From Janthinobacterium sp. B9-8 (lineage in GTDB: Bacteria; Pseudomonadota; Gammaproteobacteria; Burkholderiales; Chitinibacteraceae), in the NCBI RefSeq assembly GCF_000969645.2, contig NZ_CP014222.1:1399813-1431812 (forward strand): a stretch of DNA of 32,000 bases. The letters are read 5' to 3'. A program made the position numbers and the translations under genes. Positions 4,742 to 23,131 of this stretch are shown piece after piece. The notes under the pieces were generated by a model. That model made no database searches. It was given only the letters and a program-made list of their open reading frames with translations, and was not told the origin of the DNA. How positions within the stretch are numbered: the first letter of the stretch is position 1; every line of letters begins with the position of its first letter.

Positions 4742-4769
4742 ACTTCGCATAATGTATATTATGTCAAGT
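4742..4769 (+). other. dif-like XerC/XerD recombination site A (host XerC arm; probably the active dif / attL)
   Basis: ACTTCGCATAA-TGTATA-TTATGTCAAGT versus E. coli dif GGTGCGCATAA-TGTATA-TTATGTTAAAT. XerC arm 8/11, central region 6/6, XerD arm 9/11. Confidence 0.8.
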
Positions 4770-4885
4770 TGATGCTTACTATTTCCCCGATCTCCCCATC
4801 TCTAAAATCCCCGTAAAATCAAGCTTTTTTCGTAATAAAACTACGTACTCGTAACGGTTTGTAAATTCTAAAAATAGTTGATTTT

Positions 4886-5392
4886 ATGCTCAAAAAACGT
4901 CTGCAAAAAGATACAAACTTCAAACTTCATATTGAACAAGCACGCATCAAAAGCCGCGCCTTGCAGCTTTCCTTCTCTCCGCCCACCGTCACAGACGCTG
5001 ATCTTGTCTATTATTCTACCTTCATAATGGGCTTTGAGTGCTTCAATCAGACAGACCGCGCCAGCCGCTTCCTACAAGCCAGATACTACCGTAACGAGCT
5101 AAATCAATACGTCGCTAAGGGCCAATGGCCCAAACCAAGACAGCGCCTTGATTTGCTGCCTTGGTTTGCTTTGGCCTTCCCAGATTTTCCTTTGCCGGTC
5201 TCTGTGCCTAAAATCAGAGTGCCCCAGCTGCTCGCACTAGACACCAGTTATGAAGAGCGCGTTTTATTCGCTAATTCGCTGGAACTCATCCGCAAAACCC
5301 TTAGAAAAGCCGAACTCAAACGCCTACGCCTGCTGAAAAAGAAAAAAGCGGCCAAAGCCGCTTCAAATCCTGATCCAGAGCCAGACGCCTAA
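4886..5392 (+). CDS. Hypothetical protein with a Lys-rich C-terminus; att-proximal gene of element 1
   Basis: 168-aa ORF with an ATG start, 117 bp after site A. No motif recognised. Converges with and overlaps the 5389-5577 gene by 4 nt. Confidence 0.5.
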   Translation: MLKKRLQKDTNFKLHIEQARIKSRALQLSFSPPTVTDADLVYYSTFIMGFECFNQTDRASRFLQARYYRNELNQYVAKGQWPKPRQRLDLLPWFALAFPDFPLPVSVPKIRVPQLLALDTSYEERVLFANSLELIRKTLRKAELKRLRLLKKKKAAKAASNPDPEPDA

Positions 5393-5577
5393 AGATTCCA
5401 CGTAGGCGGCCCGTTCGTTTCCTTAATCCAACCCGTTCGACCTGGAGGCGCATTTTGCGCCGTTTTTGGTGCCAGATTTGGCCCCTTCATCCCCTTGACC
5501 TTTTCATAAATCATCATCGCCGCTACGCCCGCAATGGCCGCAAGTACTACGCCCTTGACGTCGTTCTTGCTCATCAT
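5389..5577 (-). CDS. Small single-TM membrane protein (last gene of a lysis-like cluster)
   Basis: ATGATG start overlaps the upstream stop (ATGA coupling). TM segment VVLAAIAGVAAMMIY. Confidence 0.45.
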   Translation of the reverse strand: MMSKNDVKGVVLAAIAGVAAMMIYEKVKGMKGPNLAPKTAQNAPPGRTGWIKETNGPPTWNL

Positions 5578-5792
5578 TGCGCGGCTGCTTTTCGTTCAGG
5601 AAGAAAGACGCCCAGCAAAGCGGCCACCACAGGCCCAGCGACCCCCACAGATGACATTAAGGCTGGATCAACATGCGCCAGCGCACCCAAAGCGGCCACG
5701 CCTGCCCATGTTGACGGCTCCTTCAGTCTTTCAAATAGATATTTAAGCTTTTTCAATGTATTCCCCTTTTTTGTGACTTTAGAAAATGTCAT
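5574..5792 (-). CDS. Small holin-like membrane protein
   Basis: Internal ATG at 5792 overlaps the stop of the upstream gene. MTFSKVTKKGN..LKEPSTWAGVAALGALA followed by a second hydrophobic segment. The EPSTW(A/R)G motif is recalled from small phage membrane proteins. Confidence 0.5.
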   Translation of the reverse strand: MTFSKVTKKGNTLKKLKYLFERLKEPSTWAGVAALGALAHVDPALMSSVGVAGPVVAALLGVFLPERKAAAQ

Positions 5793-6192
5793 ACCAATGT
5801 TTAATGGGCGCTTTGCCCTTGTTTTGCCGGTAATCCTTAACCGCATTACCCGCCGCGTAGGCCTTGCCAGCAGCCCACAACCCCACAACCGGCATACCGT
5901 CCAAATCTTGAATCAAGTCATAAGGCATGTAGGACATGCAGAGCTTTTCCTCCTCTGCGCCCACCGGAATCACGCCGGTTAATGCCTTTACATTCATCAA
6001 AAATTGCACTTTGTAGCTGTCGATAATTTCTTTTTTCTTTGCCGTATCGAGCTGCTTAATCTTCTCGGGCAGCTTCGCCACTACATCAACCGCCCCGCCC
6101 ACCGCGTCACTAATCTTGCGGCCTGCTAAATAAAGCAACAACGCCGCGCCGCCAGCTATCCAGAGCATTTGCTTATCCGTTAATATCGCCAT
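5779..6192 (-). CDS. N-terminally membrane-anchored hypothetical protein
   Basis: ATG with AAGGG 6 nt upstream. TM segment MLWIAGGAALLLYLAG. Coupled to the downstream small genes. Confidence 0.55.
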   Translation of the reverse strand: MAILTDKQMLWIAGGAALLLYLAGRKISDAVGGAVDVVAKLPEKIKQLDTAKKKEIIDSYKVQFLMNVKALTGVIPVGAEEEKLCMSYMPYDLIQDLDGMPVVGLWAAGKAYAAGNAVKDYRQNKGKAPIKHWYDIF

Positions 6193-6225
6193 GTATGCCC
6201 TTAACCCGCCTTTTTAGGTGCTGTA

Positions 6226-6555
6226 ATGAAAATTATCTTATTTTTGTCCCTAGTCACTTTTAATGCATTGGCTTTTTCATCCTCTTTTGAGTCCTACGGA
6301 GCAAGAGAGGATTACGGCCCTGATGTTGCCGAGTGCCGTAAAATCAGCTTTACAATTGATCGCGATGAATGCCTGTTCAAAATCATCAATGAAAAACAAA
6401 AAAACCAGCCCATCACAAAAAGTAAAGCCGACTTCTCTTACTGCCAAAAGCTGGGCATGTCCTATCAAAAAAGAGAAAAAATCGTGTCTAGCTCAAGCAT
6501 CGGCACGGGCATTGCCTTGTGCATACTTGATAAAACGGGCACTAGTCGAGACTAA
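6226..6555 (+). CDS. Secreted small Cys-containing protein (moron-like, opposite strand, AT-rich)
   Basis: AGGTG 6 nt before the ATG. Clear signal peptide MKIILFLSLVTFNALAFSSS. Fills a 349-bp gap that has no credible minus-strand ORF. Confidence 0.55.
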   Translation: MKIILFLSLVTFNALAFSSSFESYGAREDYGPDVAECRKISFTIDRDECLFKIINEKQKNQPITKSKADFSYCQKLGMSYQKREKIVSSSSIGTGIALCILDKTGTSRD

Positions 6556-7186
6556 TATCAGCCATTACCTCAAGGGCATAAACTCTTTGTTCTTTTTGTG
6601 GCATTTTTTCCGGCACAAAACGGCCGCCATTTGCGGCCAAATGCTTATTAAGCGTCCCCGGCCCACAATTGTATGCAGCCACGGCCTTCGTCCAATCCCC
6701 ATATTTTCTATACAGATAGGCCAGATATACGGCTGCAGCGTCCCCCGCCTGTTTCCAATTGTATGGATCAACCTTTGTGCCTAATTGCCGAGATAATTCA
6801 ACTACGGTAATCGGGTTGATTTGGAACATGCCAGCGGCCTTGCTGCCGGTGTTGTATGCAGTTTCTTTGAATCGGCTCTCTTGGTACGCAATTCGAGAAA
6901 GTAAGTAATTCGGCAAGCCCCTGTTTCTTCCGATTTGCTCTAACTCCGTCACGTATTGATTACCGCGTCCTGAAGTAACTGATTTTTTAAAGTCCGAATT
7001 AATCAAATCAAATGCATCCTCTAAATATTCACCAGCATCACTGAGGCTGGCTTTCATAAACCCAAAAACATCCGGCAAGAAAAAGCCGCCCTCTTTCTGC
7101 GTCTCCCCTGCCTTCTGCGCTTTAGCCATCAACAGCCACAAGCCGCCCAGCCCAAGCGCGATGACTACAATGGCTTTTTTATTCAT
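6542..7186 (-). CDS. Membrane-anchored lytic transglycosylase (SLT domain)
   Basis: QESRFKETAYNTGSKAAGMFQINP and AYNCGPG motifs. N-terminal TM segment. Start at internal ATG 7186, which overlaps the upstream stop (ATGA). Confidence 0.8.
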   Translation of the reverse strand: MNKKAIVVIALGLGGLWLLMAKAQKAGETQKEGGFFLPDVFGFMKASLSDAGEYLEDAFDLINSDFKKSVTSGRGNQYVTELEQIGRNRGLPNYLLSRIAYQESRFKETAYNTGSKAAGMFQINPITVVELSRQLGTKVDPYNWKQAGDAAAVYLAYLYRKYGDWTKAVAAYNCGPGTLNKHLAANGGRFVPEKMPQKEQRVYALEVMADISLD

Positions 7187-7395
7187 TCGGGCACTACCCG
7201 CAATTCCCACGCCGAGCCAGTCCAGCAAGGCCACTTATCGCCTATCGGGGCTTGTGGTTCTATAAATGTGGCGTTAGCCGGTAGCAGATAAACCCCGTCT
7301 TCAAGGGGGGATCGCTGTGCTAAGGTTGCGCCCAAATGTTCGCCCGTCAGTGGGTCGAATGAGTGTGCGGCTTTAAAGGCGGTCTGCTTTGCCAT
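7183..7395 (-). CDS. Small protein resembling the N-terminal part of tail-fibre assembly chaperones
   Basis: The pattern LLPANATFIEPQAPIGDKWPCWTGSAWEL resembles Tfa/gpG-type proteins (P.naT..PP....g.W.f.g..W). Lies directly after the collar-domain gene. Confidence 0.4.
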   Translation of the reverse strand: MAKQTAFKAAHSFDPLTGEHLGATLAQRSPLEDGVYLLPANATFIEPQAPIGDKWPCWTGSAWELRVVPE

Positions 7396-7411
7396 TGGTT
7401 TTTCTCGCTTT

Positions 7412-7939
7412 TTAGTAATAGATGCAGGGCAGTAAGGCGACGTTGCGGGGGCGAGTTTCTGTGCCGCCGACTATTCCCATCGAAGCCGACGAGTTAGAGG
7501 GGGACGTTGCAACATCACGACCCAATGGGAACTGCAACGTTCCCGCTGCGCCCTGTGCTGCGACCATATTTCCTGAAACTTGATTTCCATCAGTAAGCAC
7601 AATTGGGTGCTTGTGAGATTGAATATCACCACCCTGCCCAGACCCCACTACCCGACCGGAATCAATGCCGCGCCCCTGATCGGCAAAACGCGGGAATTCA
7701 CCGCGTAAATCGGGTAGTGCAAACGTGGTGTTGCCATCGCCTGCGCCGTACAAAATACCGATTGCCGCAAAAAGATTTGCGTAGGCTGTGCGGCTGATTA
7801 ACGCGCCATTGCAAAGCAAAGCGCCTGCCGGTGGAGTTGCACCGGCATGTGTAAAGACTTCTCCCGCCATTTTTCGCCGTCCGTATGTATTGACCACGCC
7901 CACAGTCGATTTGTAGATACGACGTGTCAGGCGGCCCAT
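7412..7939 (-). CDS. Phage tail-collar domain protein (candidate receptor-binding spike tip)
   Basis: PPAGALLCNGALISRTAYANLFAAIGILYGAGDGNTTFALPDLRGEFPR matches the Collar-domain signature. The ATG overlaps the upstream stop as TAATG. An alternative start is M24 at 7870. Confidence 0.75.
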   Translation of the reverse strand: MGRLTRRIYKSTVGVVNTYGRRKMAGEVFTHAGATPPAGALLCNGALISRTAYANLFAAIGILYGAGDGNTTFALPDLRGEFPRFADQGRGIDSGRVVGSGQGGDIQSHKHPIVLTDGNQVSGNMVAAQGAAGTLQFPLGRDVATSPSNSSASMGIVGGTETRPRNVALLPCIYY

Positions 7940-8511
7940 TAGTAGAGAATTTCCTGAATTTTTAGCGGGGCATTTGCTGCGTCAGCAATGGCAACCCATG
8001 CCGCGCCCGCCGCTGTTTCTTCCACCCATAATTCACCCGGAGCCAATTTAATGGCGGCGTCTGTCAGGCTTAGGCCTGCGCCACCGATCCAGATGTTTGC
8101 CGTGCTGGCATTAAATAAGCGAAGCGAAGCGCGATTGATGTTCTGGCCAATCACGACGCTTTCAGCCACGCCCACCAGCAACATGGGTTTATTGAGCACA
8201 GATAGCGCGGGTGTCAGTCGGGAATCGACTTTCCCAGAGATACGGTCGTAACCGCCGCTGGAGTCGTTAGACATGGCGATTTCAACGCGACCCGCCGCAT
8301 CGGTAATGATGTCAACGCGGTCGAATTGCTCATCATCGACTTTTAGCCAATAGCCGCCGAGCACGTCTTTTGCTTCACTGACTGCGCGGTTTTGCCGGAA
8401 AAATTGAATCGTTACCGGCCCGCCGCTGGTATCCAGCAGGCGAAAGTAGCGGCCTAAATAATTGATATTCCAAGTGCCAGCCGCTTGAAATACTTGTGAC
8501 ATTGTTTGCAT
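7939..8511 (-). CDS. Putative vertex/spike base protein (P1-like position)
   Basis: 190-aa beta-rich protein between the membrane-protein block and the collar gene. The assignment rests on position only. Confidence 0.4.
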   Translation of the reverse strand: MQTMSQVFQAAGTWNINYLGRYFRLLDTSGGPVTIQFFRQNRAVSEAKDVLGGYWLKVDDEQFDRVDIITDAAGRVEIAMSNDSSGGYDRISGKVDSRLTPALSVLNKPMLLVGVAESVVIGQNINRASLRLFNASTANIWIGGAGLSLTDAAIKLAPGELWVEETAAGAAWVAIADAANAPLKIQEILY

Positions 8512-8513
8512 GA

Positions 8514-9104
8514 TTAGCCCTTTTTAAATGCCATTAATGCAAATACGCCGATTACGGCAATAGCAATCGGTTTCATATCGCCAAGCGATTTACCGTCTTG
8601 TGCATCTTTGGCATTTTTCCAAGCATCAGATACTTGGCTTCCTGCTTTGGCCGCGATTTCAGCCACCGAATTGCTTGTATATTTCGCCAATTCTTGCGCG
8701 TTTTTTACCAAGTCATCGGTGATATGCTGATTTTTACCGATTGCCTCAAATGCGCTATTGGTAATGCGCACACCGTAATCTAATGAATCACGGTTAATTT
8801 CAGCAGATTTAACGGCCAATATATTTAAGCCATTTGCACCGGCATTAATACTGTCTTTCGCAACACTTAACGCGCCGGATATAGCGCCTAAATCCGTCGA
8901 AGTAACATGATTCGTTGTATTGTTGGTAGATCGGTTGCTGGTATCTACGCTGGTATTTTGTGTGAAGCTGGACGTACTTCTATTGGATAAATCTAAATTA
9001 GTCGTGCTGTGATTTGAATAATCAAGCTGCTTTTGATCCCACGTTTGGTTATACGTATTTGTTGTATTTTTGACTTCATTATTTGTATCGCTATTGCCGC
9101 CCAT
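8514..9104 (-). CDS. Asn/Ser/Thr-rich C-tail-anchored membrane protein
   Basis: Low-complexity N-terminus with a repeated SNRST motif. C-terminal TM segment PIAIAVIGVFALMAF. TAATG coupling with the upstream gene. Confidence 0.6.
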   Translation of the reverse strand: MGGNSDTNNEVKNTTNTYNQTWDQKQLDYSNHSTTNLDLSNRSTSSFTQNTSVDTSNRSTNNTTNHVTSTDLGAISGALSVAKDSINAGANGLNILAVKSAEINRDSLDYGVRITNSAFEAIGKNQHITDDLVKNAQELAKYTSNSVAEIAAKAGSQVSDAWKNAKDAQDGKSLGDMKPIAIAVIGVFALMAFKKG

Positions 9105-9487
9105 TACTTTTCCTTTCTCAAAACGATTTCAGCATCGACAAAGCCCATGCCGCGCCAAATTCTGGCTAATGCCGGATTAGTCACATGAGTGCGGATTGAA
9201 TCAAACGGCTCGCATAAAACAATTAATTCCCGCATAGCTTCGCGCAATTCGGCAAGGGTTAGCTTGCCACCGCATGCAACAATTACGGCTTCTTCTAACC
9301 CGTCGTCGAATTTTTCAACGCGCAATAAAACACACCCCGCAATTTCCCCATTTTCGCGGGCATACTCAAACAGCACCGCGTTGCCGGATTCAACCGCATT
9401 GCAATAGCTGTTTGAGTTTCCACGCGCACTACGCTGGAGCTGGCATAAATGCCAATTGTTTGGCTGTTTTACACGTCGTAATTTCAT
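9104..9487 (-). CDS. Soluble hypothetical protein
   Basis: 127-aa ORF with ATGA coupling on the upstream side and TAATG coupling on the downstream side. No secure motif. Confidence 0.5.
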   Translation of the reverse strand: MKLRRVKQPNNWHLCQLQRSARGNSNSYCNAVESGNAVLFEYARENGEIAGCVLLRVEKFDDGLEEAVIVACGGKLTLAELREAMRELIVLCEPFDSIRTHVTNPALARIWRGMGFVDAEIVLRKEK

Positions 9488-9786
9488 TTCTTTTTTAGTT
9501 TCTTAAGCAGCAGCACTAAAAGCAATAATCCACCGGCCAAAAGCAAATATTGCTGGGTGTTCCCCGCTGGCCCACTATTTACGCCCTGACTCATACTTGG
9601 CACCGAGTCTTGACTGGATCGTTGTGACTGATCTTTTTTAAGTGATGTGTATTGCGTACCTCCGCCCAAATTAACAATAAAATCCCCTGTTGCCAGACTG
9701 TTGTTGCCGCCGTAGCGGTAACTTTGATCTGCCATTGAGGAAAGCGCCGACTGGCGCATACTGTTGATGGATAAGGGCGCGCCCAT
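9484..9786 (-). CDS. C-tail-anchored membrane protein
   Basis: C-terminal LLLAGGLLLLVLLLKKLKKK. TAATG coupling to the upstream gene. Confidence 0.55.
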   Translation of the reverse strand: MGAPLSINSMRQSALSSMADQSYRYGGNNSLATGDFIVNLGGGTQYTSLKKDQSQRSSQDSVPSMSQGVNSGPAGNTQQYLLLAGGLLLLVLLLKKLKKK

Positions 9787-10052
9787 TACTTCACCAGCAG
9801 AAAGACAATCACCACACCGACCGCCGCCATCATCAGCAGCCCCGTGTTACCACTTACCGCTGGTAACAAGGTTTGCTGATTTGTGGGTTGACCTGGCACA
9901 TATGGTTGTCCCGTTCCCGGATCAACCATATAGGGCCGATTTGCTGTGCCGAACTCGCGCCCGATATAGCCTTTAGCCGCACTACCGACAATATCCTGAA
10001 TAAAGCCCGTCCAATCACTGCCCGCACCAGCGGGCACTTCTGAATCTGACAT
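9786..10052 (-). CDS. C-tail-anchored membrane protein
   Basis: C-terminal GLLMMAAVGVVIVFLLVK. AAGGCGG RBS. Directly downstream of the capsid candidate. Confidence 0.55.
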   Translation of the reverse strand: MSDSEVPAGAGSDWTGFIQDIVGSAAKGYIGREFGTANRPYMVDPGTGQPYVPGQPTNQQTLLPAVSGNTGLLMMAAVGVVIVFLLVK

Positions 10053-10063
10053 ATTGCGCCGCC

Positions 10064-10858
10064 TTATAGGTTGCCGAGCAGGTCGATATACTCAACATAA
10101 ACGGTAATGGTTTCCGGCCCGCTAAACGTCGGGTTTACTTCAAACGACACGCAATCCGAAGTGCTCAGCATATCGGTTTGATTGTTGTCCACGATTGGAT
10201 CGAAAATATAATAGCCAGCTTGCGGCGTCTTTTTATTTTCCTTTTGCCAAAATTCGTTTACTTCTTTGACCGATTCATGAATAACCGTGCCATTTTTTTT
10301 GATTTCAAGACCGTTTGCGGTATTGGATTTAATATAAATCCGCTTGATGATCGAACCGCCTTGATTTCCGTATGGCAAAGCAAGCGGCCATTTGCCCGCA
10401 GCCGCAATATTGAAATTGTATTTCAACATTTTATTGCAGACGGTTAATTGGCGCGGGCCACTGATAATTGACCAGCAAGTCAATTGTGGAGCAACGGCTG
10501 TTCCCGCAATATCCACTTCCACAACGGCCTGAGATACGCCATTTACCGTACCAAGCGCACCAATAGATTGGCCTACCTGATCGCGCGCAAATAGTTCTGT
10601 GAAATCAATTGTAATGAATTTTGAATCTGTCGCTAAACCGGAATAGGCATTGATTGATTCAAGATCAGCCGCATTGCATTGGTGAATGACCTTGCCATTT
10701 ACACGCATACGAATATCCGTGATATGGGTTTTATTAAACGTTGTGCCGCCCATTTGCAGCATTAAGCGTTCATACGTCATGCCATTAGGCAAAGTCAGTG
10801 TTGCCGTGCTACCGGCAATCACATTAAAAAATGGTAATTCTTTTCGCTGCATTGTCAT
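10064..10858 (-). CDS. Candidate double-jelly-roll major capsid protein (PM2 P2-like)
   Basis: 264 aa (PM2 P2 is about 269 aa). Beta-rich, and sits between the ATPase and the membrane-protein block. N-terminal pattern L.LPNGMTYE..L...G.T......I..IR..VNGK and C-terminal VYVEYI match my recollection of P2. Not verifiable here. Confidence 0.6.
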   Translation of the reverse strand: MTMQRKELPFFNVIAGSTATLTLPNGMTYERLMLQMGGTTFNKTHITDIRMRVNGKVIHQCNAADLESINAYSGLATDSKFITIDFTELFARDQVGQSIGALGTVNGVSQAVVEVDIAGTAVAPQLTCWSIISGPRQLTVCNKMLKYNFNIAAAGKWPLALPYGNQGGSIIKRIYIKSNTANGLEIKKNGTVIHESVKEVNEFWQKENKKTPQAGYYIFDPIVDNNQTDMLSTSDCVSFEVNPTFSGPETITVYVEYIDLLGNL

Positions 10859-10884
10859 TATGCAAAGCCCTTTTTGTGTTTGGG

Positions 10885-10980
10885 TTATTTGCCGATTACA
10901 GCGTCTTTTAACGCGCCAACGCGATACACCACGGCCATTACACCGATGACCAGCAAAACGCTTTTAACTGTTGAATTCAT
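10885..10980 (-). CDS. 31-aa single-TM protein (below the track threshold)
   Basis: MNSTVKSVLLVIGVMAVVYRVGALKDAVIGK, with AAGGGG 8 nt upstream of the ATG. Lies 26 nt upstream of the capsid gene. Confidence 0.4.
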   Translation of the reverse strand: MNSTVKSVLLVIGVMAVVYRVGALKDAVIGK

Positions 10981-11084
10981 TTTTATCAGCCCCTTGGGGT
11001 TAATTGATTAAAGAGACTTAATAATCTGATATTTTTTTAGAAAAGAAAATAGACGGACTTTTACCCTTTAAGGCGTCCTATATG

Positions 11085-16919: not shown

Positions 16920-17206
16920 TGATGCAAGGACTCAAGCGCCAAGCTTGGCGACTTCGAAACAATTTGCAGCAATGCTGCTGCTGGGCCGGTCGGGTTACGC
17001 CGGTGCTGTTCCCAATTTTGAAGCGTCTTTACGCTTACACGCATCAGCCCCGCAAACTCGCCCTGAGACAATCCTGTCTGTGCTCTGATCGCTCGCACAT
17101 CGGGCGGCAAAACCTCAAAACGACGTGCTGTTTGGTTCTCCCCGGATGCAATGCTTTTTGCTTCTTTAAGACTCTGCACCAAGTCCTCGAAAAGTGACGG
17201 TTCCAT
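16916..17206 (-). CDS. XRE-type HTH antitoxin (HigA/NadS-like, COG2944 type)
   Basis: GLSQGEFAGLMRVSVKTLQNWEQHRRNPTGPAAALLQIV is the hallmark of this antitoxin family. Lies 1 nt downstream of the toxin stop. Confidence 0.8.
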   Translation of the reverse strand: MEPSLFEDLVQSLKEAKSIASGENQTARRFEVLPPDVRAIRAQTGLSQGEFAGLMRVSVKTLQNWEQHRRNPTGPAAALLQIVSKSPSLALESLHQ

Positions 17207-17207
17207 G

Positions 17208-17519
17208 TTAAAGCTCCTTTACTAAATCGTGCAAAATCGCGGTCTCAGCGTCAGTTAGCGTGTCTTTTTTAGACTTGGGGTAAATGAGTAACATGTAAAT
17301 CTGATGGTCCTCCCTAACCCAGTAATAAATCGCCCTGACTCCACCACTTTTACCGCGGCCTGTGACGGCATAACGGATTTTACGAATACCTCCCCCGCCC
17401 TTAATAACATCGCCACGCGCGGGGTTTTCTACCAATTCATTTTGTAAGCCTCTGTATTCATCGTCTGTTAAAAGTGCTTTCAGCAAGCGGGTAAATGTTG
17501 GGGTTTCGATAAATTCCAT
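17208..17519 (-). CDS. RelE/ParE-superfamily toxin (HigB-like, PF06296-type)
   Basis: MEFIETPTFTR...GGGGIRKIRYAVTGRGKSGGVRAIYYW...IYMLLIYPKSKKDTL. Start at internal ATG 17519. The toxin-first gene order is typical of HigBA. Confidence 0.8.
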   Translation of the reverse strand: MEFIETPTFTRLLKALLTDDEYRGLQNELVENPARGDVIKGGGGIRKIRYAVTGRGKSGGVRAIYYWVREDHQIYMLLIYPKSKKDTLTDAETAILHDLVKEL

Positions 17520-17528
17520 GAGTAAAAT

Positions 17529-17545
17529 ACTATACGCCATTGGCG
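17529..17545 (-). promoter_or_regulatory. Candidate TA promoter -10 (TATAGT) with adjacent 11-bp palindrome CGCCAATGGCG
   Basis: On the minus strand, CGCCAATGGCG-TATAGT lies 9 nt before the toxin ATG. This suggests a near-leaderless transcript and an autoregulatory operator. Confidence 0.35.
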
Positions 17546-17584
17546 GACAAAACAAGGGGAAAATGTAGGGGTTTAGCGCGATAG

Positions 17585-17713
17585 TCAGGCTTGCTTACTG
17601 TGGGGCCAGCGATCTGAGTTCCAAAAATCAATAAAGTGCTTTTGCCTATCTGGCGGACTAGTGCAAGCCGAAAGCAATAAGGCCAGAAATATAAAATAAG
17701 CTTTAAATTTCAT
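17585..17713 (-). CDS. 42-aa lipoprotein candidate overlapping the zot stop
   Basis: Internal ATG 17713 gives MKFKAYFIFLALLLSAC|TSPP, with lipobox LLSAC. It overlaps the Zot stop by 11 nt. The 76-aa track ORF is probably too long. Confidence 0.4.
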   Translation of the reverse strand: MKFKAYFIFLALLLSACTSPPDRQKHFIDFWNSDRWPHSKQA

Positions 17714-18686
17714 TGTTTGTATTCCGGCCACTTTCACCCCCCTGATTGCCACTTGGCAAGTAAGAAAGAAAAACGCCATTCTTAACAATGCTCTCGCACA
17801 TACTTTGCGGGACATCTAAAGGCGTCGCCTGATTCGTGTAGCACTTACACCCCTTTGACGCGGTTTGCATACACACTTGAGGCGCAGGAACAGAAACAGG
17901 CTCAGTTAATTTATCGTAAACCGGTGCGGTATACGCCAGAGTGGGAATTCGCGGCTTTTGTTGTTCAATCCATTGCTCGCGCGTTAATTCGCCCTTAGAG
18001 CCCCCTGTAAAGCTTGACGTATTTAACGAAAAATGCGACGCCGGTGAAGACGCCGAAATATTAGGATCTGCTTTACTCTTTCCGACAATCATATTGTATG
18101 AATAATAAAAGCAGGAAATAACAAGAGCCAATAAAACAGGAATTAATAAAATCTTAGCGGGAATATTCCTTTTAACGGTATGTAATTCCGCACTTTTATA
18201 ATAATCGTAAACCTCTTTCGGATAAGACCAAACGTGTTTAATAGAATCTTTGCGCGATTTATCGCAATTCTCACGAACGCCCTGAAACTCATGAATAGTC
18301 GCTCTTTTAAGACCACATGGGCGCATAACATGGAAATGCTTACCAACCAAACGCCTGACGTTGCCATCGACCAACATCGGATGCTGAGTAATTAAAAAAA
18401 TATCATGCCCCTTGTGTCGATGGGTTTCCAGCTCGGAAACATGCTTAGGGACTGCTGAACCACTCGAACGAGTTCTAAACACGCGCTGACACTCATCAAT
18501 CACAATGATCGCGCCTTTAGGGCACTCCGGCCACTTCTCGGGCTCGATTTCAACCCACGGTAATTTTAAATCGTTGATGCCCGAATAAAAAACCTCTCGA
18601 TTGTCTTTTTCAGACAGTAATTTCACATCTTGCAAAGTACGCAAGGTTTTACCGGCACCTGGCATGCCTGTAATGAGCGTAATCAT
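17703..18686 (-). CDS. Zot-like assembly ATPase (inovirus pI)
   Basis: MITLITGMPGAGKT Walker A, IVIDECQ Walker B, central TM segment. ATGA coupling with the pVI-like gene. Confidence 0.85.
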   Translation of the reverse strand: MITLITGMPGAGKTLRTLQDVKLLSEKDNREVFYSGINDLKLPWVEIEPEKWPECPKGAIIVIDECQRVFRTRSSGSAVPKHVSELETHRHKGHDIFLITQHPMLVDGNVRRLVGKHFHVMRPCGLKRATIHEFQGVRENCDKSRKDSIKHVWSYPKEVYDYYKSAELHTVKRNIPAKILLIPVLLALVISCFYYSYNMIVGKSKADPNISASSPASHFSLNTSSFTGGSKGELTREQWIEQQKPRIPTLAYTAPVYDKLTEPVSVPAPQVCMQTASKGCKCYTNQATPLDVPQSMCESIVKNGVFLSYLPSGNQGGESGRNTNNEI

Positions 18687-18988
18687 TTAGTCACCCACTT
18701 CCTGAGAACGCCACCGGTCAAACCTTTAATCACCAAGTTAACAGTAATAGCGGAAAGCAAAATAGAAATACAAACATCAATTTTTAATAAACCCATGATT
18801 TGTAAAATCTGTACCGGCACATCTTTGATGTTCTGAATAATATCCAGTTTAATGTTTTCTAATAACTTATGAATGCCGCCATAAGAAACAACACCCACAC
18901 CAAAAGCAATTAAAGCCCGACCAAAAAATGACGCGGCCGCAGAAACCAAGCCCCCAATTAATGCAGCAATCCATGGTGCAGCAAACAT
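18683..18988 (-). CDS. pVI-like minor coat protein (DUF2523-like)
   Basis: 101 aa with three hydrophobic segments, between pIII-like and Zot. AGGGG RBS. Confidence 0.6.
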   Translation of the reverse strand: MFAAPWIAALIGGLVSAAASFFGRALIAFGVGVVSYGGIHKLLENIKLDIIQNIKDVPVQILQIMGLLKIDVCISILLSAITVNLVIKGLTGGVLRKWVTK

Positions 18989-18997
18989 AAAAAACCC

Positions 18998-20359
18998 CTA
19001 TGCTAATGACGAAGAAACAATTTTAACCGCGGCTAATAAAGTAAATGCGACTGCTATATTGCCCATCGCCTCTAAAAACTTATTTAACTTTGAAATCGGG
19101 ATTGGAACGGTTTGGCCCATTAAAACCACATTAAAATCAGACAACCCCCCTGAGCCTAAAAACCGAGTCTGTTTAATTGAGTCCTCTAAATCCATAGGGT
19201 TTTTAGAAAAACCAAGCTCAGCTCTTATCGAACTTGTACCCGAAGCATCCATGGCCGCAACACCGGACTTATAGAGAGCCGAGTCAAGCATTTCTTTACG
19301 GTCTTTTTCCTCTAAACACTTCTCATGCCATGCCAACCTTGCTATCTCGCACGTAGCAGGATCAGCATTCACGCATTTAAACGCTTCGCACGAAGCGGCT
19401 AAGCTCATAGGCCCACTGGCAGAGGCAGATGACGCAGAAGTACTGCTGGCGGGCAGACGTGTACCTGTACCGGTTCCTGTGCCGGTCCCTGAGGGGCCGG
19501 AAGGGTTTGGTTTTGGATCTTTGGGATCAGTTGGCTTATCGTCCGGCTTAGGGTCCCATTTATCGCAATTGCCAATGCAAGCATCTGGCGCAGGGAGATC
19601 ACCGGGTTTAATTGGCGGAGGTACACTAGTGCTTAAACAGCGTTTAACCTCACCTGTGCCGTCACCCCAAGAAATCGTTCCAAAAGACGTACCTTCAGGA
19701 CAATCTTGAGGGCCGTTCGGCTCCTTTGGCTTGGGCGCATCAGGCGGAAATGGTGATCCATTAGGCTTGGGTCCATTTTCTTTTACCGTACATTGTTCAC
19801 CTGTAAACTTCATCTGCATTCGCATAAATGCATTACCAGCTGTATCTCCAACAACATTACCACCAATTGAATTTTTAATAGGCGGGCCATTTGCTACAGT
19901 TTCACAACCATCAATACACGTAGGAAAACCAGATTTTGAAAATGAATTAAAAGAACCGGAATCAAACAAAACAGCCGCCCCTCCACCAGACGGCATTTTA
20001 ACGCCAGGGATAGGGATATTATATATGCCTGCACTTTGATTTTTTTTATCATCGCATAAAGAGGCTTTAATGCGAGTAAATCCGCGATTAATTCGAATAC
20101 CGGTTGTAGACGTTTTAGCCCATATAGAAACAACACATCCAGCACCAATTGGAATGCCGGGGCATGTATTGCTTGATACGTCATGACCAACGCTGTAACC
20201 AACCGAAGTAGCATAAGAAATAGTAAACCCTAAAGGATCACTAGTAGTTTTACCAGTCTCATTATCTATATACAAAACTGCAGAATTAGCTAATCCGCAG
20301 AGAAAATAAGCCACAATGCCAATAAACAAACGACTATATAAAGTAATCCTTCCATTCAT
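18998..20359 (-). CDS. pIII-like adsorption / minor coat protein
   Basis: N-terminal signal/TM segment, Cys-rich N-domains, Pro/Lys-rich and GTGTGTGTGT/Ser-rich linkers, and C-terminal membrane anchor IAVAFTLLAAVKIV. Position after the major coat gene. Confidence 0.65.
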   Translation of the reverse strand: MNGRITLYSRLFIGIVAYFLCGLANSAVLYIDNETGKTTSDPLGFTISYATSVGYSVGHDVSSNTCPGIPIGAGCVVSIWAKTSTTGIRINRGFTRIKASLCDDKKNQSAGIYNIPIPGVKMPSGGGAAVLFDSGSFNSFSKSGFPTCIDGCETVANGPPIKNSIGGNVVGDTAGNAFMRMQMKFTGEQCTVKENGPKPNGSPFPPDAPKPKEPNGPQDCPEGTSFGTISWGDGTGEVKRCLSTSVPPPIKPGDLPAPDACIGNCDKWDPKPDDKPTDPKDPKPNPSGPSGTGTGTGTGTRLPASSTSASSASASGPMSLAASCEAFKCVNADPATCEIARLAWHEKCLEEKDRKEMLDSALYKSGVAAMDASGTSSIRAELGFSKNPMDLEDSIKQTRFLGSGGLSDFNVVLMGQTVPIPISKLNKFLEAMGNIAVAFTLLAAVKIVSSSLA

Positions 20360-20434
20360 ATCAACCCCTAATCATTTCGTATGAGCGCCCGTGCGCCGCA
20401 AGCGTCGCCCAGTCGCTCATCCAAAATTTAGGCG

Positions 20435-20459
20435 AAAAAAGAGCGGCAAAAAGCCGCCC
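20435..20459 (-). terminator. Rho-independent terminator after the major coat gene
   Basis: On the minus strand, GGGCGGC-uuuuu-GCCGCUC followed by UUUUUU, 16 nt after the coat stop. Same arrangement as the Ff terminator after gene VIII. Confidence 0.6.
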
Positions 20460-20475
20460 ATTGCTACAGGAAAAA

Positions 20476-20685
20476 TTAAATAAGCGCGTTTTTTGCCCAC
20501 TTATACACTTTAATACCAACATAAATAGAAAGTGCAGCTGTACCAATCAGGGCGATTGCTTTCTGAGCCTCACCCATTTCAGCAAGAACAGCAGAAACAT
20601 CAACAGCTGCAAATGCAGGAGCAGCAATTAAAGTACCAGCAACAACTACAGCAACACGATAACCGCGCTTTAAAAATTTAGTCAT
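20476..20685 (-). CDS. Inovirus major coat protein (pVIII-like)
   Basis: Start at ATG 20685 with GGAG 6 nt upstream; the track ORF starts at 20697. Signal peptide MTKFLKRGYRVAVVVAGTLIAAPAFA|AV. The 47-aa mature protein has an acidic N-terminus, a hydrophobic core and a basic C-terminus. Confidence 0.75.
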   Translation of the reverse strand: MTKFLKRGYRVAVVVAGTLIAAPAFAAVDVSAVLAEMGEAQKAIALIGTAALSIYVGIKVYKWAKNALI

Positions 20686-20899
20686 TTGAATCTCCATCTT
20701 GGTTGATAGTCTTAATTAAGACACGAAAAAAATAGGCAGTTGCCCACAATAACGCAATGGCCGCTAAGACCGGCTTTGCATCCTCAATAGTCCAATCCAT
20801 TACTGAACCAGACGTAATAACATATTGGCAGTTAGTCGCCACATTTGAAGCGATTTGCAATAGGCCATCAGGGCGAATTGAAACGCATTGTTGAATCAT
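20678..20899 (-). CDS. Small membrane protein (pVII/pIX position)
   Basis: 73 aa with one TM segment (VLAAIALLWATAYFF). Its stop overlaps the coat ATG (ATGACTAA). Confidence 0.45.
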   Translation of the reverse strand: MIQQCVSIRPDGLLQIASNVATNCQYVITSGSVMDWTIEDAKPVLAAIALLWATAYFFRVLIKTINQDGDSND

Positions 20900-20903
20900 T
20901 TAA

Positions 20904-22109
20904 TTAGCCATTCACTAATTTAAGCGTTTGCACATCATTAGCCGCGTATTGCGTCATACGGGCTTGATGATCCCAATACCAGCTCGGAGCCTCTGCCATA
21001 GGCTGTATGTCGATGACTTTAATCACCGTCGTAAATTTCTGCGTATTTTCTAATGGCTCAGAAATATCAATACCATAGTCACGTAATACCTTTGCATATC
21101 TATAAAACGTTCTAGTCGTTAAATGAGAACGCACATCCTCGCCACGCAAGTAAGCCAATGCGGCCATCTTGGGGCCTGAACCAATGTCTAGCGTATCAAA
21201 ATCAATTCGGGTGATGTCTTCACGAACACGCCCCAAAATTGGGTTTACGTGCTCATCAAATAACGCATTTAATTTGGGCATGGTGATATCTCCAATAAAT
21301 CGAAGTGATGAATCGCGCAATAACAAACGCCCTGCTTCCAGCTCGAAACGAATTACACCGTTTTTCAAACAAAATTGGTAAACGGGATCGTTTAAAACCT
21401 CTTCACGGGTGCGTCCATGCGCCTTTGCGTGGTCCAACATTTCGTTGGCTTTGATATAGCATTTCAAATAAACGCGACCGCCCTTCTTACCCCAAGCAAT
21501 CGTTGATTCACCTGAACGGGAACGCTTTACGTGTGATTTTGATTGTGTGGCCAGCCAATCAATGGCGGCTTGTGCATTACCGGCCGAACCGGTGATGTAG
21601 TTTTTTGTTAAGTGCAGCATCGAAACCGTTGCGCCAGTCCACTCTTCCATTAAACCGTGCTTAAAATCGTACTCAGACGGGCGCATGTTTTCGTGATAGT
21701 CACCCGAATGGAACTTAGGCAGCCCGTATTCACTCAAAAATTCGTTAGCCTTGGCTAAGGTTTCGTCAAAGCTAAGGTTAAAAAGGTTGTCAGGGCGATC
21801 AAACCGGCCAACATTGCCAGAAAATTCGACGCGACTACCATCACAACGCAACATCAGACCGGATGAAAAAGAGCCTTCGTGGTGAACTCTCGAATGCGAA
21901 ACCCACTCTTCATCATCATCGATCTGCATTGTGTCCAGGTCGCGGCCATACTTCACGACAAAACCGGAATCAACATATGGCAGCGAAAGATCACTTTTAG
22001 GGGGTAAGTTCTCATTGCCAAGCAATACCGAAAACGGGCCAACAAATTCCACATTCTTGGAAAAATCAGACTGCGACAGTGTGATCCAATCTACAAAAAC
22101 ACCTGACAT
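20904..22109 (-). CDS. Filamentous-phage replication initiator (gpII / Phage_CRI family)
   Basis: 401 aa. FVDWITLSQ N-terminus, STIAWGKKGGRVYLKCYIK and GVIRFELEAG parallel M13 gpII segments (STVTWNE.., GLVRFEARIK). GAGGTG RBS. Confidence 0.8.
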   Translation of the reverse strand: MSGVFVDWITLSQSDFSKNVEFVGPFSVLLGNENLPPKSDLSLPYVDSGFVVKYGRDLDTMQIDDDEEWVSHSRVHHEGSFSSGLMLRCDGSRVEFSGNVGRFDRPDNLFNLSFDETLAKANEFLSEYGLPKFHSGDYHENMRPSEYDFKHGLMEEWTGATVSMLHLTKNYITGSAGNAQAAIDWLATQSKSHVKRSRSGESTIAWGKKGGRVYLKCYIKANEMLDHAKAHGRTREEVLNDPVYQFCLKNGVIRFELEAGRLLLRDSSLRFIGDITMPKLNALFDEHVNPILGRVREDITRIDFDTLDIGSGPKMAALAYLRGEDVRSHLTTRTFYRYAKVLRDYGIDISEPLENTQKFTTVIKVIDIQPMAEAPSWYWDHQARMTQYAANDVQTLKLVNG

Positions 22110-22146
22110 TTTCCCACCTCAAAAACAGCCTAAAAATTGCAATGCA

Positions 22147-22258
22147 GTCTCAAATTGAGACAAAAGACGGGGGGGTCTTACGCGGTTAAAACGAGCGGTC
22201 AAAATTGGGGTTTTGTGCCAACTTGGCACAAAAGACGGGTATTACTAGAGACCCGTCT
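22147..22258. other. Hairpin cluster in the inovirus intergenic region (candidate origin / packaging signal)
   Basis: Four hairpins: GTCTCA-aat-TGAGAC (22147-22161); AAGAC-GGGGGG-GTCTT (22164-22179); TTTTGTGCC-aactt-GGCACAAAA (22211-22233); AGACGGGT-10 nt-ACCCGTCT (22233-22258). A 12-bp direct repeat ACAAAAGACGGG occurs at 22160 and 22228. Confidence 0.45.
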
Positions 22259-22278
22259 CCAAAACCGAACCCCCAGAC

Positions 22279-22581
22279 CTACCCCGCCGAGGCGGTTTTT
22301 TGAGAAATTCCGACCACAACCGGAACCAAGCGACCGGCGAACTGAGTCATGTCCGTGACGAGCTCCAAAGTGGCCGGAAATTTGATACCTGCGAACTGGG
22401 CAACGCACTCGGCAGTCGCGCCGATTTGGACGATTTCAAAACCGTGACCAGTTTTCGAAAATGCATCGTTCGAAACGGTCTCAACCGGAACGAGCGTGTT
22501 GATGTTGCACATGTCGTAGGGCTTGCCCGTTTTCTTAGCGATGCCCTTCATACGTGAAATACCGGCGACGATTGCTTGCAT
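22279..22581 (-). CDS. gpV-like ssDNA-binding protein
   Basis: 100 aa. GISRMKGIAKKTGKPYDMCN resembles M13 gpV TRSGVSRQGKPYSLNE. C-terminal FAGRLVPV resembles M13 DRLRLVP. AGGA RBS. Confidence 0.5.
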   Translation of the reverse strand: MQAIVAGISRMKGIAKKTGKPYDMCNINTLVPVETVSNDAFSKTGHGFEIVQIGATAECVAQFAGIKFPATLELVTDMTQFAGRLVPVVVGISQKTASAG

Positions 22582-22673
22582 GGTTTATTTCCTGTTGGTT
22601 TTGGTCGAAAGTGGTAAAGATGAATTCGGGGTTTTGTGGAATACCCAGTAAAATGGAATTCAGCTAATCGTTT

Positions 22674-22730
22674 GTTCTCAGCTGAGAACAGACAGAACGA
22701 ATTGTTGTTCTCAGCGAAGAACATTGTCAA
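22674..22730. promoter_or_regulatory. Two palindromic operators plus the leftward phage promoter
   Basis: O1 is GTTCTCAGCTGAGAAC (22674-22689, perfect 16-bp palindrome). O2 is GTTCTCAGCGAAGAAC (22707-22722). A perfect TTGACA on the minus strand at 22725-22730 has AACAAT 18 nt downstream, so O2 sits in the spacer. Confidence 0.5.
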
Positions 22731-22738
22731 CAGGAAAA

Positions 22739-23128
22739 ATGATGAAGCTTGTAATCGACTACGCGGATGACGCGAAAGAAAAGCTAGGAATGACGACAGA
22801 TTCAGACCTAAGCAAACACCTAGGCGGCAGTCGTGGCTTGGTTACACAGTGGAGAACAGAGGGGAAAGTGCCGGACGACTACTACTGCATTCGCATTGGA
22901 CAAATACTTGGAATTGATCCGCTAATTGTGATCAGCGCCGCAAACTTTCAGCGCGAAAAATCGACTGAGCGAAAGGCGTTTTGGGAAAATTTCAATTCGG
23001 GCCGTACTGGAAAAATACTAGGAACGGCCCTGATAGCGGGGATGTTAGCGACGCCCTCCCCTGAAGGGGTGAAGGCTGAAACGAGTTTGTCTTACTCGGG
23101 ACTGACTACAATAGTGTATATTATGTAA
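22739..23128 (+). CDS. HTH repressor-like protein of element 2, with a C-terminal hydrophobic segment
   Basis: Divergent from the structural operon. HTH SDLSKHLGGSRGLVTQWRTEG. AGGA before ATGATG at 22739/22742; the track start at 22724 is a TTG. The last 8 codons and the stop lie inside dif-like site C. Confidence 0.6.
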   Translation: MMKLVIDYADDAKEKLGMTTDSDLSKHLGGSRGLVTQWRTEGKVPDDYYCIRIGQILGIDPLIVISAANFQREKSTERKAFWENFNSGRTGKILGTALIAGMLATPSPEGVKAETSLSYSGLTTIVYIM

Positions 23129-23131
23129 AGC
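23104..23131 (+). other. dif-like site C (element-derived XerC arm plus host XerD arm; attR)
   Basis: GACTACAATAG-TGTATA-TTATGTAAAGC. Central region 6/6, XerD arm 8/11 to E. coli dif, and a degenerate XerC arm (4/11 to the host arm of site A). Confidence 0.7.

Follow-up and report, generated by a model that had tools for sequence, protein, structure and literature searches.

In the chromosome of the strain deposited as Janthinobacterium sp. B9-8, which is in reality an Iodobacter (Betaproteobacteria; Neisseriales), the interval between adhE (1947-4619, minus strand) and an ABC-F/YheS-type gene (23279-25174, minus strand) most probably holds a tandem array of two IMEXs (integrative mobile elements exploiting Xer), a PM2-like double-jelly-roll (DJR) prophage and a CTX-like inovirus, at a dif (chromosome-dimer-resolution) site. 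On the basis of sequence comparisons, we put the probability of this reading at about 0.8. The window, i.e. the whole 32,000-nucleotide stretch that was analysed, has flanks 93-95% identical at the nucleotide level to I. arcticus, and the array contains three direct 28-bp dif-like sites, all on the plus strand, starting at 4742, 15708, and 23104. Their common core, TGTATATTATGT, is present in exactly three copies in the window against a chance expectation of 0.08, and three copies arose in 0 of 100 shuffles. The original prediction of three same-orientation sites sharing TGTATA was borne out, with 28-mers exactly as quoted and above chance, and its spacings of 10,966 bp (A to B) and 7,396 bp (B to C) were reproduced.

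Site A (4742-4769, plus strand; ACTTCGCATAA-TGTATA-TTATGTCAAGT) matches the betaproteobacterial dif consensus at 27 of 28 positions, site B (15708-15735, plus strand; CGTAAGCATAT-TGTATA-TTATGTCAAGT) at 22, and site C (23104-23131, plus strand; GACTACAATAG-TGTATA-TTATGTAAAGC) at 20; nothing above background (<=18) emerged when the rest of the window was scanned with the same consensus. The dif regions of more than 120 other species carry the first 23 nt of site A unchanged, a stretch that spans the XerC arm and central region; published betaproteobacterial dif sites match this arm and central region as well. Sites B and C have strongly degenerated XerC arms, with 5 and 8 of 11 bases, respectively, differing from the A arm. 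Site A reads as the left junction, in which the adhE-side host XerC arm ACTTCGCATAA and TGTATA meet the XerD arm of element 1, site B as a hybrid of the element-1 XerC arm CGTAAGCATAT and the inovirus XerD arm, and site C as the right junction, where the inovirus XerC arm GACTACAATAG would be joined to TTATGTAAAGC, the host XerD arm belonging to the ABC-F-side site. Site C shares its XerD arm and flank with the empty site of L122-L124 (relatives are designated by L numbers) and the right junction of L121, and a CTTACAA motif (23154-23160, plus strand) lies at a fixed offset past the XerD arm, as it does in all ABC-F-side ('dif1-type') XerD flanks.

From these junctions the attP of element 1 is reconstructed as CGTAAGCATAT-TGTATA-TTATGTCAAGT and that of element 2 as GACTACAATAG-TGTATA-TTATGTCAAGT. 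In the mechanism proposed here, each attP would be double-stranded, with a degenerate XerC arm, a host-identical TGTATA, and a good XerD arm, and the host XerC and XerD would recombine it with a host dif-type site. The adhE-adjacent junction, site A, would be regenerated as a near-canonical dif and is the candidate for the active site, and the element-derived XerC arms would come to lie at B and C. If new arrivals use site A, the inovirus probably integrated before the DJR element; this predicted order fits Iodobacter sp. HSC-16F04, where a relative of the inovirus directly adjoins the adhE-side site.

Gene content of the two elements

Both intervals appear to be intact virus genomes, as originally proposed, with DJR capsid, Rep, and ATPase in one and Zot, coat, Rep, and an RstB-like protein in the other. 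PHROG and Pfam scans of the 39 ORFs of both elements detected no integrase or transposase, and no tRNA or Rfam match was found in the window, upholding the claim that the array lacks an integrase, a transposase, and a tRNA target. A search of IMG/VR for an excised circle or the predicted attP found none.

Element 1 (4770-15707, minus strand), a PM2-like (Vinavirales) DJR prophage of 10.9 kb, encodes on the minus strand a DJR capsid protein (10064-10858; phrog_8536, 1e-27), labelled 'major capsid protein P2' by NCBI, that matches PDB 9t9v (1.9e-13) and PM2 P2 (2vvf, 8e-7). The same strand carries genes for a packaging ATPase (11216-11947; phrog_2666, 3e-29), a GPA-family rolling-circle replication initiator (12820-14718; phrog_91, 5e-116; PF05840, 3.3e-70), a lytic transglycosylase in a PM2 P7-like role (6542-7234; phrog_342/669, about 1e-17), and a collar-domain receptor-binding or spike protein (7412-7939; phrog_523, 5.7e-40); the L128 homologues of the last two contain an SLT domain and PF07484, respectively. 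On the plus strand, orf168 (4886-5392) is the terminal gene; in the circular form it comes first after attP, where the Vibrio dif-type DJR phages have P15/XafT. It has no family match, and its homologues number only 3 among 1.8 billion representatives; its counterpart in L128 is 78% identical. An HTH regulator (15226-15648, plus strand; phrog_4441/638, with a weak HTH_3 match) is the last gene before attP, which would be the P16-like position of a repressor. In L128 the same adhE junction is occupied by a relative of element 1, about 83% identical in nucleotides overall and 83-86% in aligned blocks. As the two have diverged as much as the host genes, element 1 may be a prophage of long standing that has been passed on vertically and is possibly inactive.

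Element 2 (15736-23103, minus strand), a CTX-like inovirus prophage of 7.4 kb without an integrase, is collinear with an inovirus of HSC-16F04 (76-86% nucleotide identity) except for a 1.1-kb insert. Its minus-strand genes code for a Zot/pI assembly ATPase (17703-18686; phrog_197, 1.6e-79), two minor coat proteins (18683-20359; phrog_1242, phrog_4352), one pVI-like (18683-18988) and one pIII-like (18998-20359), a major coat protein (coat B; 20476-20697; PF05356, 1e-12), an inovirus rolling-circle Rep of the G2P/CRI type (20904-22109; phrog_702, 3e-48; PF05144, PF05155), and an RstB-like ssDNA-binding protein (22279-22581; phrog_929, 1e-17), whose HSC-16F04 homologue contains PF07459. The accessory insert (16479-17555, minus strand), missing from the HSC-16F04 inovirus, carries genes for a secreted, Cys-rich protein (orf146, 16479-16919), an HTH antitoxin (16916-17206), and a RelE/HigB-type toxin (17208-17555), all on the minus strand. 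Homologues of orf146 lie between the dif-like site and the ABC-F gene in L122 and L125 and within the inovirus in L121. The terminal orf149 (15836-16285, plus strand), the first gene after attP (XafT position), is 90% identical to an HSC-16F04 protein and 30% identical to orf157 of L121 and L127, for which a DUF3653 match falls below threshold (E 0.023). At the other end, the repressor gene in the RstR position (22724-23128, plus strand; likely ATG at 22739) follows a divergent promoter region with two copies of the palindrome TGTTCTCAGCTGAGAACA (22673-22723), which are candidate operators. Its reading frame extends into site C, crossing the XerC arm and the central region, to a C-terminus of ...VYIM, the TAA stop being supplied by the host XerD arm.

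Relatives, paired inverted sites, and an inverted module

The same junctions in relatives hold other IMEXs or empty sites with site-precise boundaries, and for this reason the tandem-array reading is well supported. At site A, homology to L125, L126, and L127 stops at the final base or no more than 1 nt from it (4768-4769), and homology to L128 and L129 continues into those relatives' own IMEXs. L122-L124 show the empty site, and in L121 the same host arms enclose another inovirus, with homology to the window beginning inside site C. With the close relatives of each element in L128 and HSC-16F04, these are the site-precise boundaries that had been anticipated.

Twin inverted dif-like sites lie on a single contig in L125, L126, L127, L128, and HSC-16F04, and are present in every relative where both are visible, with their XerC arms toward an adhE-mgtC module of 4-13.5 kb; Iodobacter IMEXs stack on the outer, XerD side of either twin. 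What had been taken as the chromosomal dif is therefore one of a pair. In B9-8 the host module mgtA-mgtC-adhE (1-4741) is inverted with respect to the ABC-F side: by the strands of BLAST blocks it is flipped relative to L121, L122, L125, L126, and L131, a lower bound of at least five lineages, and the breakpoints coincide with the sites. The array is consequently bounded by an adhE-side XerC arm and an ABC-F-side XerD flank. The adhE|ABC-F adjacency of the window is thus a derived inversion, possibly made by XerCD, and immediately beyond the left edge of the window there is very probably a second dif-like site. None of the relatives examined showed the originally predicted empty site with adhE on one side and the ABC-F gene on the other; I. 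arcticus has an exact copy of the predicted 28-mer, but its XerD side is occupied by zur/cobW/thrS, not ABC-F. The more novel aspect of the locus is that both inverted twins may be active dif sites and that XerCD may have produced the inversion.

The inversion also offers another route to the array, in which a DJR element had integrated at the adhE-side site and, separately, an inovirus at the ABC-F-side site, and a single inversion between the far junction of the former and the near junction of the latter then fused the two IMEXs. The required precursor combines arrangements seen in L127 (a GPA-Rep element outside the adhE-side site) and L121 (an inovirus outside the ABC-F-side site), L128 has its element-1 relative at the adhE junction, and such an event would yield the three hybrid sites seen here. 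Against this, the element-2 relative of HSC-16F04 sits at the adhE-side site, indicating that neither virus type has a fixed 'home' site, and every scenario needs three events and yields identical junctions, so that the window cannot discriminate between them; we regard such a fusion as possible but doubtful. That the repeats instead arose by HUH Rep integration or short-homology recombination, their dif likeness being incidental, is highly improbable even though both elements encode HUH-type Reps. The central hexamer and XerD arm are shared by these two unrelated virus types and two further element types in relatives, all four lie exactly at host dif-type sites, the junction type stays constant though the Rep families vary (GPA, G2P, Rep_trans), and published precedent makes both virus groups Xer-dependent.

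It is also conceivable, though unlikely, that the sites are secondary ones bounding a chromosomal 'dif module' (adhE-mgtC), with the real dif elsewhere and the viruses targeting look-alikes. Two good inverted sites 4-13.5 kb apart fit poorly with one dimer-resolution site, and Acinetobacter has a main dif in addition to chromosomal dif-like sites that bound modules. Yet site A and the adhE-side site of I. arcticus are full canonical 28-mers, identical or nearly so to the dif of many species, and a true dif is the target of known IMEXs. KOPS-like GGGNAGGG motifs in the host flanks also converge on the pair (10 of 10 point toward it), a weak indication given the small counts and partly homologous DNA; GC skew within the window was no guide to the terminus. 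Finally, a good inverted twin within 8 kb was found at 0 of 120 dif loci of other species, suggesting that the pair is a lineage peculiarity at an apparent dif locus.

Relation to known Xer-dependent systems

CTXphi uses an ssDNA hairpin attP, VGJphi a dsDNA attP with XerC-side homology, and TLCphi a dsDNA attP with full central homology in which XerD is activated by XafT. No second inverted dif-like site was found in either Iodobacter element, which argues against an attP of the CTXphi hairpin type; unlike in VGJphi the central region is fully identical to that of the host, and degeneration affects the XerC arm and not the XerD arm, a mirror image of TLCphi. As in the classical V. cholerae IMEXs, the elements lack an integrase, insert at dif, and leave direct dif-like repeats, and element 2 shares the RstA/RstB/RstR-like core plus Zot.

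[quoted passage not shown] 2024, PMC11630473), as is the temperate PM2 relative NO16 of the proposed 'Asemoviridae', with a dif-like attP and proposed XerCD integration (PMC9966536); what is new here is the host class. Common to the Vibrio arrays and this one are an integrase-less inovirus beside a PM2-like DJR prophage at dif, dif-like attL/attR with one junction restoring the canonical motif, a repressor at one end and a small gene in regulator position at the other, and accessory (toxin-antitoxin) genes close to the borders. The Iodobacter array differs in its betaproteobacterial host, a capsid protein only 24-31% identical to the Vibrio DJR capsid proteins, repressors that are barely alike (21%), the lack of a detectable homologue of the P15/XafT-type factor expected from the Vibrio lysogeny module, an inovirus repressor ORF overlapping the attachment site, and the twin inverted-dif setting with its inversion. 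Element 1 resembles PM2 and NO16 in its size of about 10-11 kb, P2-type DJR capsid, GPA/P12-type rolling-circle Rep, packaging ATPase, transglycosylase, small membrane proteins, and dif-like attP, but its sequence is far removed: 50,697 phage records gave no nucleotide match to it. It also occurs in another host class and has many ORFs without a family.

The gonococcal genetic island, a 57-kb type IV secretion island at the Neisseria dif (cited in PMC2731167), belongs to the same bacterial order and, as far as that account extends, likewise consists of foreign DNA flanked by one good dif and one degenerate copy in direct orientation; here the inserts are viruses, and twin inverted sites are not described for the island in that source. 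The dif modules of Acinetobacter (PMC12907356, PMC5790767, PMC13141974) also hold genes between two inverted Xer sites, the XerC arms lying on the inside in the 'C module' type, and their rearrangement points are Xer sites. Those modules are mostly plasmid-borne, with varied central regions, and separate from the main dif, whereas the Iodobacter twins share one central region, have arms close to canonical, and lie on either side of housekeeping genes at the apparent terminus, each of the two also being used for prophage attachment.

Three direct dif-like sites and their occupancy among relatives

The original prediction of a tandem array of IMEXs (integrative mobile elements exploiting Xer) started from three dif-like 28-mers, all of which were recovered exactly on the + strand as sites A (4742-4769), B (15708-15735) and C (23104-23131); the spacings of 10,966 and 7,396 bp were likewise borne out. 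The 12-mer TGTATATTATGT occurs in three copies in 32 kb, with 0.08 expected, and 0 of 100 shuffles reached three. Scored over 28 positions against the betaproteobacterial dif consensus, sites A, B and C reach 27, 22 and 20, respectively, and the rest of the window stays at or below 18, which is background (shuffles yield 2-11 such matches). Site A, next to adhE, thus reads as a 28-bp XerC-arm/6-bp/XerD-arm site fitting the dif consensus of the lineage. At least 120 species-representative genomes contain its first 23 nt (ACTTCGCATAATGTATATTATGT), which makes the A-type arm a widespread dif; no Iodobacter locus was among the listed matches of the genome-collection scan with this arm. The same 23 nt agree with the published dif of Thiobacillus, Methylobacillus and Neisseria (PMC2731167). 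What did not survive is the designation of this locus as the chromosomal dif in the sense of a single site, as relatives carry a second, inverted site at a distance of 4-13.5 kb. The window's GC skew is governed by gene strand and prophages and is hence uninformative on the terminus. Of the GGGNAGGG motifs (KOPS-type) in host DNA next to the sites, counted in B9-8 and its relatives together, 10 of 10 are oriented to the sites; as a sign of a terminus this is weak, the count being small and the DNA partly homologous. Inside the prophages only two such motifs are found, at 7632 and 23054, both on the - strand and so oriented to site A, the permissive direction for FtsK travelling from the ABC-F side to that site.

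Comparison loci were obtained through close homologues of ABC-F, AdhE and orf149, the left-terminal ORF of the B-C element, together with one metagenome scan. Four proteins of the window match proteins of Janthinobacterium sp. B9-8 exactly. The flanking genes resemble those of Iodobacter: the ABC-F protein of the window is 95-99% identical to Iodobacter proteins and the window flanks (adhE, mgt and the ABC-F region) are 93-95% identical to I. arcticus at the nucleotide level. NCBI lists B9-8 under Oxalobacteraceae and Iodobacter under Neisseriales/Chitinibacteraceae, and by these identities the label Janthinobacterium is probably wrong.

Occupancy of the sites varies among these relatives. On the ABC-F side, three loci (L122-L124; one from Iodobacter sp. 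HSC-16F04, the others from two related assemblies) show one empty site, TATTCGTATAT-TGTATA-TTATGTAAAGC, whose XerD arm and next bases agree with site C. In L121, a different inovirus, of the Rep_trans type, lies between the host's ABC-F-side XerC arm and its XerD arm, and homology with the window starts within site C. L128 carries a ~83%-identical relative of the A-B element on the adhE-side arm with identical junction sequence, and L129, likewise from HSC-16F04, has a collinear relative of the B-C element directly on the adhE-side arm. Variation lacking site-precise boundaries had been named as an outcome that would speak against Xer-mediated integration; the opposite was seen, in that homology breaks inside sites A and C among relatives, and such site-precise variable occupancy is what IMEXs are expected to show. 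As in that class, A, B and C are direct, site A is a junction regenerating a canonical dif (27/28), and insertion is precise at a host attB, attB here being one of two inverted sites. The prediction is thereby supported in its core, a tandem array of IMEXs, whose integration and excision would depend on host XerC/XerD, at a site of dif type. In L127, a stretch of about 300 bp (460-787) beyond the far junction of an element with a GPA-type Rep resembles the left end of the window's B-C element (15716-15840) and part of its toxin gene (17338-17510), which suggests a decayed second IMEX and a former tandem array.

The DJR prophage and the inovirus

The element between sites A and B (element 1, 4770-15707) forms the 10,966-bp repeat unit and has its structural and replication genes on the - strand. 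Its 264-aa capsid protein, named 'major capsid protein P2' by NCBI, matches PDB 9t9v (1.9e-13) and PM2 P2 (2vvf, 8e-7) over nearly its full length as well as phrog_8536, with 24-31% identity to the capsid proteins of Vibrio DJR phages; this places the element with the PM2-like DJR viruses (Vinavirales / Corticoviridae-like, 'dif-type DJR'). Further genes encode a packaging ATPase (phrog_2666, 3e-29), a rolling-circle Rep of the GPA family (PF05840, 3e-70), a transglycosylase, a collar-domain spike and several small membrane-type ORFs; unit length, ATPase and Rep agree with the circular genome of ~10 kb of such viruses. An HTH gene (15226-15648) and orf168 (4886-5392) flank attP on the strand opposite to the structural genes, as in PM2. 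The lysogeny module of dif-type DJR viruses consists of a P16 repressor, attP and a P15/XafT-type regulator as terminal genes; orf168 has no detectable family and is essentially without relatives in the homologue search.

From 4770 to 9024, element 1 is 83-86% identical in nucleotides to L128 (177-4394), and the adjacent host genes adhE and mgtC show 87% and 76%. As this divergence is about that of host genes, the prophage may be old and vertically inherited and not recently acquired. The IMG/VR capsid search retrieved one degraded relative (L132, UViG 2861607078_000003, 3121-9180), whose capsid protein is truncated and 55% identical; this relative ends beside a near-canonical dif, AGTTCGTATAA-TGTATA-TTATGTTAAGT, with the XerC arm toward the element.

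The element between sites B and C (element 2, 15736-23103), also with structural and replication genes on the - strand, is an inovirus encoding a G2P-type Rep, an RstB-like protein, coat protein B, pIII- and pVI-like proteins and Zot. The combination of a Zot/pI ATPase, coat B, a G2P Rep and an RstB-like ssDNA-binding protein makes it a CTX-like member of the Inoviridae; the Rep has no relative in IMG/VR. The element also encodes a toxin-antitoxin pair of the RelE/HigB-HTH type and, as orf146, a secreted Cys-rich protein with signal peptide and conserved cysteines; together these make up a 1.1-kb block (16479-17555) that is missing from the otherwise collinear HSC-16F04 inovirus. Homologues of orf146 are found within the L121 inovirus and as lone genes between a dif-like site and ABC-F in L122 and L125, where they are probably IMEX remnants. 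A 39-nt direct repeat (22133-22171 and 22201-22239) lies between the Rep and rstB-like genes, and two copies of the palindrome TGTTCTCAGCTGAGAACA (22673-22690 and 22706-22723), in the divergent region between the rstB-like and repressor genes, are candidate operators.

The claim that both viruses lack an integrase, a transposase and a tRNA target holds: PHROG and Pfam scans of the 39 ORFs of the two elements found neither enzyme, and there is no tRNA in the window. A nucleotide search of both elements against 50,697 phage records gave no match. Each has two + strand terminal genes, an HTH regulator before its right-hand site and an unassigned ORF after its left-hand site, such that a circular form of either would read 'regulator - attP - small ORF'. 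The predicted junctions of the excised circles, CGTAAGCATAT-TGTATA-TTATGTCAAGT-TGATGC for element 1 and GACTACAATAG-TGTATA-TTATGTCAAGT-TACC for element 2, were not found in IMG/VR.

The attachment sites of both elements agree with the host's central region at 6/6 positions and have good XerD and degenerate XerC arms. A CTXphi-type attP is composed of two inverted dif-like sites ~90 nt apart that form a hairpin on ssDNA; since neither strand of either element holds a further dif-like site above background, and thus no second inverted one, this type was excluded. The degenerate XerC arm and identical central region also differ from VGJphi. The arm pattern of TLCphi is the mirror image of that seen here, and TLCphi-type integration involves an element-encoded DUF3653 Xer activation factor (XafT). 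For orf149, only 5 homologues were found, none annotated, and it has no family match of its own; a 30%-identical homologue (L121/L127) matches DUF3653 at E 0.023, below the cut-off, no more than a hint of a XafT. Homologues of orf168 and orf149 were too few for profile building, which leaves a XafT/P15 assignment tentative for both.

Arrays combining an inovirus with a DJR virus at dif are already known from Vibrio, to which the window contributes divergent members from a new host class. Ma & Zhang 2025 described dif-type DJR prophages and CTX-type inoviruses as IMEXs in 688 Vibrio genomes, with frequent tandem arrays, an inovirus + DJR example among them, and a common repressor-attP-regulator module (PMC12715192). 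Steensen et al. 2024 reported tailless prophages together with filamentous ones at a single integration site in at least 30 cases (PMC11630473), and XerCD integration was proposed for PM2-like vibriophages in the NO16 paper (PMC9966536). The B9-8 array supports widespread exploitation of Xer by DJR viruses and extends the Xer-mediated sharing of host dif by filamentous and PM2-like membrane viruses beyond Vibrio to a freshwater betaproteobacterium.

Twin inverted sites around the adhE-mgtC module

Wherever both sides of the locus are visible (L125, L126 from I. arcticus, L127, L128 and HSC-16F04), relatives carry two inverted dif-like sites. One adjoins the adhE promoter and has the XerC arm A[C/G]TTCGCATAA, TATTCGCATAA or TGTTCACATAA; the other, on the ABC-F side, has the XerC arm [T/C/A/G][A/G/T]TTCGTATAT. 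The XerC arms point inward around a module of 4.1-13.5 kb comprising adhE-mgtC and, optionally, mgtA, a phytase-like gene and genes of a two-component system (response regulator and sensor kinase). Among the dif loci of 120 other species (8 kb each), a second site was present in three and a good inverted twin in none. The nearest analogue is the dif-module system of Acinetobacter (PMC12907356, PMC5790767, PMC13141974). The loci of the relatives, with a module between inverted XerC/D sites, conform to that type, and the window shows one boundary, site A. No transfer of the module to another location was seen among the loci compared, only inversion in situ. No account of IMEXs using a pair of inverted dif sites on a chromosome came up in a limited literature search.

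In B9-8, mgtA-mgtC-adhE-site A (window 1-4769) are collinear with relatives and the ABC-F side is reversed, so that the module is inverted relative to at least five lineages (L121, L122/L129, L125, L126 and L131). Homology of the window to L125-L127 stops at, or at most 1 nt from, the last base of site A. Because of this inversion, the empty site predicted between adhE and the ABC-F gene was not found in the relatives examined; the predicted 28-mer is present exactly in I. arcticus, yet with zur/cobW/thrS on its XerD side. Recombination between inverted Xer sites would exchange the XerC arms along with the segment, and the composite expected from such an event corresponds to that observed, in which A has the XerC arm of the adhE side and C the XerD flank of the ABC-F side; the second product of the exchange would be expected a few kb left of the window.

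Iodobacter appears to maintain an inverted dif pair, with a site-bounded inversion in one lineage. Our fuller reading, to which we assign a tentative probability of roughly 0.4, is that the two near-canonical inverted dif sites, XerC arms facing a housekeeping module, are both attachment sites for several unrelated integrase-less viruses, that XerCD acting on the pair is able to invert the module or to fuse arrays, and that the flipped state has been fixed in B9-8. If so, the pair would form a natural 'double dif' terminus, with a XerD arm encountered first by either replichore. The twin sites and the site-bounded inversion could matter more than the array itself: were both sites active, they would be a natural system for studying FtsK/XerCD site choice, for tolerance of terminus inversions and for reshuffling of IMEX arrays.

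History of the array and sequences bordering the sites

Three histories of three events each lead to the present array, with identical junctions under all. The module may have inverted before two successive integrations; alternatively, two integrations at the adhE-side site may have been followed by an inversion involving the far junction, for which HSC-16F04 would represent an intermediate. Finally, separate integrations at each of the two sites could have been joined by a fusing inversion, with L127 together with L121 as the precursor state. An argument for such fusion from a 'home site' for each virus type was dropped, as HSC-16F04 has a relative of element 2 at the adhE-side site. The proposed order, in which the inovirus arrived first and the DJR virus followed at the regenerated site A, fits the inversion-first history, with two integrations followed by inversion and with the HSC-16F04 layout, but the junctions, being alike under all three histories, do not single it out.

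The boundaries of the elements display several further features. The IMEX repressor ORFs extend across the XerC arm and the central region, with ...YIM as their last residues, overlapping the site in the window (22724-23128, site C at 23104-23131), L121 (5744-6172), L127 (771-1169) and L129 (15873-16277). In the three ORFs translated, the stop codon TAA is supplied by the host XerD arm TTATGTAAAG; the element's own XerD arm, TTATGTCAAG, supplies no stop, and in the excised form of element 2 the repressor would gain 32 residues (frame of ORF 15688-15828). That the host XerD arm provides the repressor stop in three of the elements examined suggests that the form of the repressor is linked to the integration state in a simple physical way.

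About 22 nt past the XerD arm of site C, the motif CTTACAA (23154-23160) lies within A(A/C)CTTACAAG-N2-T-run. It is present in 9/9 ABC-F-side-type flanks, in host DNA and Rep_trans inovirus alike, at the same offset (the window, two sites in L121, and L122, L125, L126, L127, L128 and L131), whereas neither the adhE-side flanks nor sites A and B have it. The flanking sequence may belong to an extended site as an accessory sequence, and the occurrence of CTTACAAG at +22 nt, mimicked by one inovirus, hints at an accessory factor. On the XerC side there is an imperfect palindrome, ATTACA-N4-GTAAG-N5-6-CTTAC. At the right end of the window, the ORF-poor stretch 28661-32000 was considered as an rRNA or RNA operon; this was rejected, as no Rfam family matches anywhere in the window and the stretch holds one long ORF of at least 1113 codons, running off the window, whose homologue in relatives is the large NAD-glutamate dehydrogenase.
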